A DNA stretch of 6,537 nt from Candidatus Wukongarchaeum yapensis (lineage in GTDB: Archaea > Asgardarchaeota > Wukongarchaeia > Wukongarchaeales > Wukongarchaeaceae), in contig JAEOSI010000129.1 of NCBI GenBank assembly GCA_016840425.1, forward strand, positions 1-6,537. Reading direction: 5' to 3'. Below, piece after piece: positions 3-4,229 of this stretch. The position numbers were made by a program, and so were the translations under genes. The notes under the pieces are model-generated. The model was not told the DNA's origin, did no database searches, and saw only the letters and a program-made list of their open reading frames with translations. Position 1 is the stretch's first letter. Each line of letters begins with the position of its first letter.

Positions 3-128
3 GCGGAATTTACAACGGTGGAGGATGAGGACGGTCTTCTTAGATCTGTAGCGGTTTGTCCTAAGTGTAAAAGCCAGAACATAGTTATAAGTTGGTGGGT
101 AGAAGGAGAAAAGAAAACTGAAACATAA
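3..128 (+). CDS. 3' end of a gene truncated by the window edge; small protein with a CxxC (possible zinc-ribbon knuckle), function unknown
   Basis: Open frame from base 3: AEFTTVEDEDGLLRSVAVCPKCKSQNIVISWWVEGEKKTET, stop TAA 126-128. CPKC at 57-68. Purine-rich coding-like composition, followed by an AT-rich intergenic region with T-runs. Confidence 0.6.
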   Translation, partial: AEFTTVEDEDGLLRSVAVCPKCKSQNIVISWWVEGEKKTET

Positions 129-260: not shown

Positions 261-278
261 TCCCTTTAAAAAAAGGGA
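261..278. terminator. Short hairpin in the convergent intergenic region, possible terminator element
   Basis: TCCCTTT(261-267)-AAAA-AAAGGGA(272-278) is a perfect 7-bp inverted repeat between two convergent genes. Oligo-T tracts occur on both strands nearby. Archaeal termination usually relies on oligo-T, so the hairpin role is uncertain. Confidence 0.3.
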
Positions 279-328
279 AGTTAAGGTATTATCTTTAAAT
301 TTAAAAAATATGTGTGTTTTTTTTGTTT

Positions 329-664
329 TTATTCTTCTTCTTCTTCTTCTTCTTCTTCTCCTTCGCCTAGTTCTAGTTCTTCTAGTTCTTCTGGTTCAAG
401 GGGTGTCGGTGGTGGAGTTGTGGCTATGGTATAGCCAATCCATGCGGCGATTCCTAAGACTACTATCATCGCGATAAAAATCGGCAAAGCTAGAGCCCAG
501 TATGCTGATGGCCATTCGATTCCTATGAGTGGTATTTCGTCTCCTCTTTTTGTGGGATATGTCCAATCCATTAGGGGACCTACGATAGCCCAGAGGGTCC
601 ATCCGACTAGGATTATCAGAGATAGTCCGCATATTGTGAAACCGATTGTTTTATCTTTTGCCAT
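329..664 (-). CDS. 111-aa two-transmembrane-helix protein with Pro-rich linker and poly-Glu tail; DPM2/PIG-P-like (inferred)
   Basis: ATG at 664-662, GGAGGT SD 10 nt upstream, TAA at 331-329. Hydrophobic segments at about aa 7-29 and aa 54-81, then TTPPPTP and an acidic tail. Motifs D-x3-G-x6-SLII-x4-T-x-W-x-I-x2-P-x2-D and WP-x2-YWA-x-ALP. CDS confidence is high; the family call is moderate. Confidence 0.85.
   Translation of the reverse strand: MAKDKTIGFTICGLSLIILVGWTLWAIVGPLMDWTYPTKRGDEIPLIGIEWPSAYWALALPIFIAMIVVLGIAAWIGYTIATTPPPTPLEPEELEELELGEGEEEEEEEEE
332..358 (-). repeat. (GAA)9 trinucleotide run encoding the terminal poly-Glu of the membrane protein
   Basis: Plus strand reads (TTC)9 from 332 to 358, immediately before the stop codon on the minus strand. 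Confidence 0.9.
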
Positions 665-674
665 TTGTTATTTT

Positions 675-680
675 ACCTCC
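675..680 (-). promoter_or_regulatory. Shine-Dalgarno site (GGAGGT) for the 329..664 gene
   Basis: Plus-strand ACCTCC at 675-680 is GGAGGT on the minus strand, 10 nt upstream of the ATG. Confidence 0.75.
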
Positions 681-710
681 AAATTTCCTTTACAAAACGA
701 TCATAGGGGA

Positions 711-724
711 TATTGAAACTTTCT
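711..724 (-). promoter_or_regulatory. Possible weak BRE/TATA for the 329..664 gene
   Basis: Minus strand AGAAAG-TTTCAATA resembles GAAAG-TTTAAATA with one mismatch and would give a short leader containing the SD. The AT-rich context makes a chance match likely. Confidence 0.3.
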
Positions 725-775
725 TTTTATTTTTTTTGTTTTTATTGGTTGGACGGATAAAGAATATGAGTAAAC

Positions 776-790
776 TATTTAACGTTTTTC
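776..790 (-). promoter_or_regulatory. Alternative BRE/TATA candidate for the 329..664 gene
   Basis: Minus strand GAAAAACG-TTAAATA, about 110 nt upstream of the ATG. Confidence 0.3.
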
Positions 791-875
791 CTTTTTTTTG
801 TGGTTAAAAGTGGAAATTAAACTCTTGTTACGGGGTTTGTTTTTTGACTTGTTAGAAATTTTTGTTTCTTTTTTT

Positions 876-3403: not shown

Positions 3404-3434
3404 TTTAAAAAGGTGGATGATAGAGGAAGAAAAA

Positions 3435-4229
3435 ATGCCTGTAGTTAAAAATATTCTAAAAGATTCGTTTCTTTATACGCAAATTGATGAGTTTCTAGCT
3501 AAGCGTCTTAAAAGGGCTGGATATGCAGGATTAGATATTCGGAAAACGCCCTTAGGTACTAGGGTTATAGTTTATGCTGCTTATCCGGGGATAGTTATCG
3601 GTCGGCGTGGTCGTAACATAAACGACATTACTAAAGAACTTGAAAAGAAGTTTAACTTTGATAGCGTGCAGGTAGAAATTAGCGAAGTGGAAAACCCGGA
3701 GCTTAATTCAAAAATTATGGCTTCTAGGCTGATTTCAAGCTTGGAGCGCGGGTTTCAGTTTCGTCGTGCAGGTTATTCGATTATCAGGAGGGTGATGAAG
3801 GCGGGGGCGAGAGGTTGCGAGGTTAGGATAAGCGGGAAACTTACGAGTCAGAGGTCTCGAACTATAACTTTTCGCCAAGGTTTTGTGGCGAAATGCGGCG
3901 AGCCTGCTAAGATTTTTGTGGATGAAGCGGTTGCTTATTCTGTTTTGAAGCCAGGGGTTACGGGGGTTAAAGTTAGGATTATGCGCTCTGATGCGAAAAT
4001 GCCTGACGAGATATCGATAAAGCTACCGGAGGAAGTTACGCCACCTAAAGAAGAAGAAGAAGAAGAAGAGATAGAGGAAGTAGAAGAGGTTTTAGGGGAA
4101 GAAAGGAAAGAAGTAGAAGAGGTAGCAGAAGTAGAAGAGGTAGCAGAGGAAGAAAGGAAAGAAGTAGAAGAGGTAGCAGAAGTAGAAGAGGTAGCAGAGG
4201 AAGAAAGGAAAGAAGTAGAAGAAGAATGA
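3435..4229 (+). CDS. rps3p: 30S ribosomal protein S3 (uS3) with a long acidic repetitive C-terminal tail
   Basis: KH-domain motif PGIVIGRRGRNI, GARGCEVRISGKL, GVTGVKVRIM. Preferred start is ATG 3435 (MPVVK..., GAGG 8 nt upstream). In-frame ATG 3417 is an alternative. Confidence 0.97.
   Translation: MPVVKNILKDSFLYTQIDEFLAKRLKRAGYAGLDIRKTPLGTRVIVYAAYPGIVIGRRGRNINDITKELEKKFNFDSVQVEISEVENPELNSKIMASRLISSLERGFQFRRAGYSIIRRVMKAGARGCEVRISGKLTSQRSRTITFRQGFVAKCGEPAKIFVDEAVAYSVLKPGVTGVKVRIMRSDAKMPDEISIKLPEEVTPPKEEEEEEEIEEVEEVLGEERKEVEEVAEVEEVAEEERKEVEEVAEVEEVAEEERKEVEEE
4097..4222 (+). repeat. Perfect in-frame 51-bp tandem repeat (about 2.5 copies) with an internal 18-bp duplication
   Basis: Units 4098-4148, 4149-4199 and partial 4200-4222 are nucleotide-identical (EERKEVEEVAEVEEVAE). 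Each full unit contains GAAGTAGAAGAGGTAGCA twice. Confidence 0.95.

Follow-up and report, generated by a model that had tools for sequence, protein, structure and literature searches.

The locus described here raises the question of how a small membrane protein of an Asgard archaeon is related to two subunits of eukaryotic glycolipid enzymes, and what such a protein may do for the cell. The analysed stretch of DNA (the window) comprises positions 1 to 6,537 of contig JAEOSI010000129.1 of Candidatus Wukongarchaeum yapensis (assembly GCA_016840425.1), and its minus strand encodes a protein of 111 amino acids (aa), here called the hairpin protein. A preliminary description of the gene, made by eye, reported a two-helix hairpin with a strong Shine-Dalgarno sequence and a resemblance to both DPM2 and PIG-P. 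The open reading frame (ORF) and its Shine-Dalgarno-like element are as described there (Table 1), and AlphaFold2, supplied with an alignment of 129 family members, likewise models two helices, with a mean pLDDT (predicted local distance difference test score) of 86. DPM2 is the regulatory subunit of the eukaryotic (type-II) dolichol-phosphate-mannose synthase (DPMS) and an accessory subunit of glycosylphosphatidylinositol N-acetylglucosaminyltransferase (GPI-GnT), of which PIG-P (Gpi19) is an essential subunit. Two essential enzymes of the endoplasmic reticulum (ER) contain these small subunits, which are poorly understood and whose defects lead to human glycosylation disorders.

The archaeal family to which the hairpin protein belongs probably shares its ancestry with DPM2 and PIG-P. 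For its function we favour, with middling confidence and by analogy with the eukaryotic subunits, a reading where the protein is a two-transmembrane hairpin whose lineage separated from theirs before the duplication that produced DPM2 and PIG-P, itself older than the last eukaryotic common ancestor (LECA), and where it would dock a peripheral lipid-sugar glycosyltransferase at the cytoplasmic face of the membrane.

The two top matches of the protein among 24,736 Pfam models are PIG-P and DPM2. PIG-P (PF08510) has the best E-value of all Pfam families (37.6 bits, E 2.2e-9), with aa 6–89 placed on profile positions 4–77 of 121, so that both helices and the T.P region following the second are covered. 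DPM2 (PF07297) scores 29.9 bits (E 6.7e-7) over the whole protein, above its cut-off of 27.3; the best stretch, aa 4–33 on profile positions 2–31 of 75, involves helix 1 only. These are the regions that had been aligned by eye, and the resemblance to both families thus holds at the level of Pfam profiles. The identities counted at that time, 11/30 for DPM2 and 13/35 for PIG-P, are arithmetically right for the human strings used then, which are unverified; against the same unverified strings, the ungapped scores were reached by 0/3000 composition-preserving shuffles in each case (z 7.7 and 10.7), and helix 1 shares a D-x3-G motif and a G-x6-S-x6-aromatic register with the unverified human DPM2 string. 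Of the 129 aligned family members, 40 match DPM2 and 33 match PIG-P at E<=0.01, and several archaeal relatives match the DPM2 profile over nearly its full length; one Asgard protein, L165, reaches 39.9 bits on positions 3–71 of 75.

Hydrophobic composition is an obvious concern with proteins of this kind. As a control, six-frame translations were searched with the PIG-P model, and this ORF was the sole match in the 2.16-Mb source genome, while 14 control genomes gave no match. A second comparison set the consensus of the archaeal family against the transmembrane consensus of Pfam PIG-P, as given in PMC3217874. In the best placements the two run co-linearly, each helix falling on its counterpart (1 on 1, 2 on 2). 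For helix 2 (FWALAIPVFLAV vs YWALAIPIYLLV), 9/24 positions are identical, a score reached by 0/5000 shuffles, and in the hairpin protein itself the start of this helix is almost identical to the PIG-P consensus (Table 1). For helix 1, a G-x6-S-x6-Y register is common to both consensus sequences. The conservation of WP..YWA.ALP among archaeal homologues, proposed earlier as a check on the PIG-P likeness, is borne out at most in part, since the WP pair is not conserved (W56 in 61/128 and P61 in 76/129 members).

The family itself proved to be large. The preliminary description had named a widespread archaeal family ending in WIGYTxATTPPPxP and an acidic tail; this family is real, and the hairpin protein belongs to it by its C-terminal motif and tail (WIGYTIATTPPPTP, then poly-E), its N-terminal motif, its two helices and its match to the family profile (E 1.2e-24). 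Members are 65–130 aa long, with a [KR]-D-x3-G N-terminus, two hydrophobic helices separated by a loop of 0–53 residues, and a W-I-G-[WY]-T-x-A-T-T-P-P-P-x-P motif that hardly varies and leads into a tail with a median length of 25 aa (28% E, 12% K). A word-indexed search found few relatives of the hairpin protein; when 1.84 billion representative proteins were searched exhaustively with a profile, 362 clusters appeared at E<=1e-3, and in a 5.8-billion-protein collection at least 5,927 clusters (90% identity, E<=10) were found among the 8,000 candidates scored. The closest named relatives are from Hermodarchaeota, Thorarchaeota and Promethearchaeota. Within the sampled Asgard phylum the family profile is present, mostly in a single copy, in 108/121 genomes and in 59/61 of those of high quality. 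The 80 listed loci are mostly from Bathyarchaeia, the others from Methanomethylicia and from records labelled Nitrososphaerota. The family is therefore not specific to Asgard archaea, being abundant in Bathyarchaeia and Methanomethylicia, and this weakens the initial interpretation of the protein. In public databases its members are called 'hypothetical protein' or carry plainly wrong names; we rejected 'transcriptional regulator', 'ClcA' and 'MnhD' (NCBI, JGI) as misannotations of a two-helix membrane protein.

Several observations weigh against common ancestry. The curated cut-off of PF08510 (39.3 bits) is not reached, neither in the Pfam search, where the protein falls 1.7 bits short, nor in the six-frame search (38.2 bits), and the cytoplasmic region of PIG-P (profile positions 78–121) is unmatched by the hairpin protein. 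The DPM2 model, used for a six-frame search of the genome, gave no match at E<=1e-3, and the helix-1 match between the consensus sequences is weak (z 2.0). The similarity is confined to two transmembrane helices and their flanks, which is the type of match flagged as risky in PMC2912341 and PMC3217874: there, Wong, Maurer-Stroh and Eisenhaber describe PIG-P model matches that involve only the two helices and a short linker and are false despite E-values between 1e-9 and 1e-27; in their classification, helix 2 of PIG-P counts as a 'simple' transmembrane segment. Moreover, 38/129 family members weakly match Phage_holin_3_6 (best E 2e-5). Neither the protein nor the family profile retrieved anything relevant from PDB sequences. 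The PIG-P consensus does not share the hallmark motif of the archaeal family, WIGxTxATTPPP, and neither this motif nor the long acidic tail lies within the part matched by DPM2.

These points could be explained by convergence, with two generic transmembrane helices mimicking DPM2 and PIG-P and the archaeal protein having an unrelated membrane role. Structure searches yield generic hairpins only: a Foldseek comparison of the AlphaFold2 model with AFDB Swiss-Prot and PDB, suggested earlier as a check, gave generic two-helix matches (ATP synthase c, CysZ) at E >1. As a two-helix hairpin is too simple a fold, Foldseek cannot discriminate here. The ESM Atlas contributed archaeal clusters only, all below the 0.9 score mark, one of them with DPM2 on 11% of its members, which is a lead only. 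We consider convergence unlikely, as it would have to produce, out of 24,736 models, the very two families that are partnered with one another and reported as paralogues (PMC13478489), with a PIG-P match found nowhere else in 15 genomes, and to do so with co-linear consensus matches which include polar and aromatic positions. The size and architecture are also equal, and the gene context (see below) fits a role in glycosylation. Common ancestry of the archaeal family with DPM2 and PIG-P is, in our judgement, quite likely, but in view of the published false matches no more than that.

If so, the archaeal hairpin would represent a lineage that split off before the duplication yielding the two eukaryotic proteins. 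This part of the preliminary description agrees with a published tree. Kay et al. (Nature 2025) derive DPM2 and PIGP from a pre-LECA duplication dated to 2.06–2.88 Ga in a family of archaeal origin, and their supplementary table lists PF07297 with an Asgard sister group (PMC12872463). DPM2, PIGP and PIGY have been termed homologous (PMC13478489), and an earlier statement was that GPI-GnT accessory proteins had not been found in archaea (PMC2446393). The link between the archaeal family and DPM2/PIG-P, which had been thought possibly new, is not: precomputed PF08510 or PF07297 matches exist on most members, and the homology was used in the 2025 paper (PMC12872463). The hairpin protein is a new member of a family whose connection is already in databases. 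What the present analysis adds is the near-universality in the sampled Asgard phylum, the extension into Bathyarchaeia and Methanomethylicia, the repeated occurrence of sugar-activation genes nearby, a distribution unlike that of DPM1 or PIG-A, and a source genome whose polyprenol-phosphate glycosyltransferases of family 2 (GT2) all lack membrane anchors. Our literature search found no paper that pairs PIG-P with Asgard archaea and none on the function of the archaeal family.

Of the other small subunits, PIG-Y (Eri1) and DPM3 agree with the hairpin protein in size class and hairpin shape. DPM3 consists of two helices and a cytoplasmic tail that tethers DPM1 (established knowledge and PMC13478489), a layout which resembles the archaeal hairpin with its charged tail. 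The Pfam matches are marginal, however (E 0.73 for PIG-Y with this protein; E 0.004–0.007 for DPM3 with single family members), and do not point to a specific kinship with either. Gandini et al. suggest that DPM2 and DPM3 have topological counterparts in the two helix pairs of the type-III DPMS, and that TMH1 and TMH3 resemble human DPM2 (PMC5526996). The Asgard protein mentioned above (L165:568-1110, plus strand, genome G009) offers a parallel, having two tandem DPM2-like hairpins in a single chain of 181 aa; it lacks WIGxT-TTPPP and its 39.9 bits on DPM2 fall in two stretches. The system considered here differs in that the hairpin is a separate gene and the DPMS orthologue of the genome stops before the transmembrane domain; the archaeal family profile had no match to 5mlz at E<=10. 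The neighbours of the tandem gene (HSP20, PAC2, radical SAM) are uninformative.

The features of the gene and its product are collected in Table 1. Eight residues of the C-terminal motif (W75, I76, G77, T79, T82, T83, P84 and P86) are each conserved in >90% of the 129 members. At position 22 the protein has W where 122/129 members have Y. The density of K and R is 0.15 per residue in each terminus (N-terminus and tail) and 0.04 in the loop. By the positive-inside rule this would place both termini, and with them both conserved motifs, on the cytoplasmic face, where KDxxxG and WIGxTxATTPPPxP with its charged tail would lie side by side, leaving the outer loop free to vary. A predicted topology of this kind, the small two-helix format and the whole-protein score above the PF07297 cut-off are what the protein has in common with DPM2.

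Table 1. Features of the hairpin gene, its product and its flanks (positions in the window).
Feature	Position	Strand	Basis and remarks
CDS of the 111-aa DPM2/PIG-P-like hairpin protein	329..664	(-)	ORF and translation; stop TAA 331-329
N-terminal motif K3-D4-x3-G8	641..658	(-)	D4 in 121/129, G8 in 128/129 members; probably cytoplasmic
Helix 1, aa 2-31, with G8-x6-S15-x6-W22 face	572..661	(-)	AlphaFold2 and alignment
Variable loop, aa 32-53	506..571	(-)	Low model confidence; K39E, I47L and synonymous T35 located here
Helix 2, aa 54-82	419..505	(-)	Start YWALALPI vs Pfam PIG-P consensus YWALAIPI
Best-conserved family motif W75-I-G-Y-T-I-A-T-T-P-P-P-T-P88	401..442	(-)	Cytoplasmic end of helix 2 (predicted)
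Acidic low-complexity tail, aa 89-111, poly-E at end	332..400	(-)	Translation
Shine-Dalgarno-like GGAGGT	675..680	(-)	Read in sequence; 11 nt 5' of ATG (664-662)
Two oligo-T runs 3' of stop: T6 308-303, T7 274-268	268..308	(-)	Candidate archaeal termination signals
211-nt gap between hairpin gene and upstream gene	665..875	(-)	A/T-rich TATA-like stretches
Upstream co-oriented neighbour, archaeal phosphoglucosamine mutase / PGM-PMM family, 466 aa	876..2276	(-)	Pfam PGM_PMM domains I-IV

The conserved cytoplasmic face (KDxxxG, WIGxTxATTPPPxP and the charged tail) would then be a docking site, by analogy with DPM2, PIG-P and PIG-Y. In AlphaFold3 models these three are V-shaped hairpins that seat the peripheral PIG-A, and DPM1 touches soluble helices of DPM2 and DPM3; DPM1 and PIG-A themselves are modelled without membrane-spanning helices (PMC12182360; PMC13478489). 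The archaeal site may likewise hold or stabilise a peripheral glycosyltransferase at the membrane, which would transfer a sugar from a nucleotide sugar to a membrane lipid carrier, most plausibly polyprenol phosphate.

Candidates for such a partner exist in the source genome in the form of three short polyprenol-phosphate GT2 enzymes (C21:398-1192, C21:7203-7913 and C199:4404-5207, all on the minus strand), none with a transmembrane segment detectable by hydropathy, unlike their solved relatives PfDPMS, ArnC and GtrB, which have C-terminal membrane helices. One of the three is a DPM1/DPMS orthologue (E 2e-37 to 5mlz, chain residues 24–248 of 374) that ends before the transmembrane domain, while the other two are ArnC/GtrB-like over the catalytic part only. 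The joint presence of a DPM1-type enzyme without transmembrane helices and a DPM2-like hairpin recalls the 'human-type' arrangement, where a soluble DPM1 depends on separate membrane subunits (PMC5526996; PMC4973528). DPM1 orthologues of the phylum mostly have 237–264 aa and no transmembrane helix. A separate observation concerns genome G061, which has two DPM1 copies (L101:316-1116 and L102:228-1028) with a single C-terminal hydrophobic helix, like the yeast type-I DPM1. The DPM3 model matched neither this genome nor any control genome and is hence uninformative. A complex prediction for the DPM1-like enzyme and the hairpin core (aa 1–92, the acidic tail excluded) returned 'no answer' with a score of 0.00, which weighs neither way.

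The gene neighbourhood was evaluated in 38 Asgard loci where the hairpin gene could be placed, counting neighbours within three genes. In 21 of these, a hexose-phosphate or sugar-nucleotide gene is present, in several arrangements. A mutase of the phosphoglucomutase/phosphomannomutase (PGM/PMM) family is found upstream, downstream or convergent in 8/38 loci, in two of which a SIS-domain protein separates it from the hairpin gene; a nucleotidyltransferase with mannose-1-phosphate guanylyltransferase as best match occurs in 8/38, twice accompanied by a UDP-GlcNAc (uridine diphosphate N-acetylglucosamine) 2-epimerase; and a mannose-6-phosphate isomerase domain protein together with a PfkB kinase is seen in 5/38. 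The conversion of fructose-6-phosphate to GDP-mannose takes three steps, catalysed by an isomerase, a mutase and a guanylyltransferase. In Bathyarchaeia the same nucleotidyltransferase cluster adjoins the hairpin gene in further loci, and in an additional Asgard genome outside the 38 loci (G078), one copy of the hairpin gene (L162) adjoins a PGM/PMM mutase and a second copy (L163) a DegT-type aminotransferase. We regard this context as a moderate rather than a strong functional signal, as related genomes cannot be counted independently of one another and the hairpin gene frequently lies close to a ribosomal operon (see below). An S-adenosylhomocysteine hydrolase gene directly upstream in 37 bathyarchaeial loci was attributed to synteny within the lineage and has no functional meaning that we can discern.

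A group of Hermodarchaeota and Promethearchaeota loci may be mentioned in this connection (L007:5110-5772 and equivalents in L012, L013, L054, L120, L121 and L143), where the hairpin gene lies beside the nucleotidyltransferase and DUF1616 membrane proteins, with the UDP-GlcNAc 2-epimerase in two of them; this looks like a small glycosylation-related cluster. A 220-aa 'second copy' noted in loci of these two groups was an artefact of the motif filter and is a DUF1616 protein.

Docking of a glycosyltransferase also has evidence to contend with. No candidate partner shares the near-universal distribution of the hairpin: DPM1 orthologues (E<=1e-30) are present in 17/61 genomes of the phylum, the PIGA domain in 6/101 as against about 90% for the hairpin, and two hairpin-bearing genomes have one GT2 match each. 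The GT2 enzyme envisaged as partner in the preliminary description is therefore possible in this genome, where a DPM1-type GT2 exists, but its distribution is unlike that of the family, which is far more widespread. In 14/38 loci the hairpin gene lies near the start of the uS19 (uS19-uL22-uS3) ribosomal operon, so that part of the context signal may be inherited synteny, and metatranscriptome coverage of the window consists of one run, 1151–1368, within the upstream mutase gene and outside the hairpin gene. As no candidate matches the distribution of the hairpin, the hairpin may work with a changing set of glycosyltransferases, or its partner may be of another kind.

The latter option corresponds to a DPM2/PIG-P homologue whose partner is near-universal and differs from a peripheral glycosyltransferase; it could be the oligosaccharyltransferase AglB, the translocon, or a protein that moves polyprenol-phosphate sugars across the membrane. 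The near-universal, mostly single-copy occurrence of the family beside patchy DPM1 and PIGA, together with the ribosomal-operon neighbourhood, would suit such a partner, as would the proposal, made in 2026, that the transmembrane domain of type-III DPMS may flip dolichol-phosphate mannose (Dol-P-Man) (PMC12992685). However, the recurrent neighbours are cytoplasmic sugar-activation enzymes and not oligosaccharyltransferase or Sec genes, and the conserved surfaces are predicted to be cytoplasmic. We think this rather improbable.

A PIG-P-like subunit of an archaeal GPI-GnT-like enzyme, where a PIG-A-type glycosyltransferase of family 4 (GT4) would transfer GlcNAc onto an inositol lipid with UDP-GlcNAc supplied via the neighbouring GlmM, would accord with PIG-P being the best Pfam match, with an upstream gene that passes the archaeal GlmM model (TIGR03990), with the UDP-GlcNAc 2-epimerase in two related loci and with the GT4-type enzymes present in the genome, including the one on C41, but is highly improbable, as this 92%-complete genome has no match to the PIGA domain (PF08288), to GPI2/PIG-C (PF06432) or to PIG-L (PF02585), the PIGA domain is rare in the phylum, and the other recurrent neighbours indicate activation of mannose rather than GlcNAc. 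The absence of GPI2/PIG-C is weak and uninformative, because the PF06432 model matched no control genome either. For the same reasons (PIGA, GPI2/PIG-C and PIG-L not found here, and the low frequency of PIGA), a GPI-GnT-like role is unlikely as the general function of the family, and so is the PIG-A-like GT4 partner suggested initially.

The docking of a peripheral lipid-sugar glycosyltransferase thus remains the explanation that we favour. It can be extended, as a tentative and rather doubtful proposal, to the family acting as a shared membrane dock for several lipid-sugar glycosyltransferases without transmembrane helices in Asgard and related archaea. If this were true, the multi-subunit architecture of the type-II Dol-P-Man synthase would be older than eukaryotes, as would the hairpin subunits of GPI-GnT, and the DPM2/PIG-P split would have its archaeal parallels in the lineage-specific paralogues and the tandem hairpin of some Asgard genomes. 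A near-universal counterpart in archaea would offer a simpler system for asking what hairpins of the DPM2/PIG-P type do, and would lengthen by one the list of ER membrane components that eukaryotes inherited from their archaeal ancestor.

A second, diverged copy of the hairpin gene was observed in three genomes of one Asgard family, f14 (L159:3974-4249, L160:3934-4251 and L161:3888-4226, minus strand, in G051, G015 and G035). These copies end with TTKEPVRFTYEQAYE in place of TTPPP and the acidic tail, and adjoin a UbiA-family prenyltransferase or a PlsC-type acyltransferase. In G035 the second copy leans towards PIG-P (E 2.5e-6) and the canonical copy (L164) towards DPM2 (E 6e-5); the orthologues of the second copy in G051 and G015 gave no match, and such leanings are weak and inconsistent.

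In the window itself, the mutase encoded upstream scores 448.7 bits against NCBIfam TIGR03990 (Arch_GlmM, cut-off 439). The gap between the two genes is 211 nt long, and its coding strand is free of T runs of five or longer, so that the hairpin gene may either have its own promoter or be transcribed by read-through from GlmM. Two ORFs on the opposite strand, 310–477 and 312–434 (+), with poly-L and poly-S translations, were discarded as artefacts, since they read the GAA repeat of the poly-E tail in antisense.

DNA of the source genome (2.16 Mb, 38% G+C) recurs in metagenomes from marine sediment, mangrove and marsh in several studies. Contigs from other such samples carry the substitutions I47L and K39E and a synonymous change at T35 (window positions 526, 550 and 560), all in the variable loop, and the same two substitutions occur in a 97%-identical cluster (P0002). 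No strain variant of the hairpin gene was listed within the helices or motifs for these sediment, marsh and mangrove contigs.

Beyond GlmM lies a ribosomal-protein operon, assigned by eye as uS19-uL22-uS3. The ORF assigned as uS3 (window 3417–4229, plus strand) is extended at its C-terminus by a long series of E/V-rich tandem repeats (EEVAEVEEVAEEERKEVEE...), reminiscent of the poly-E tail of the hairpin protein. On the other side, a convergent gene whose 3' end occupies window positions 3–128 (+) continues past the contig edge, and its terminal segment contains CPKC and may be a zinc ribbon.

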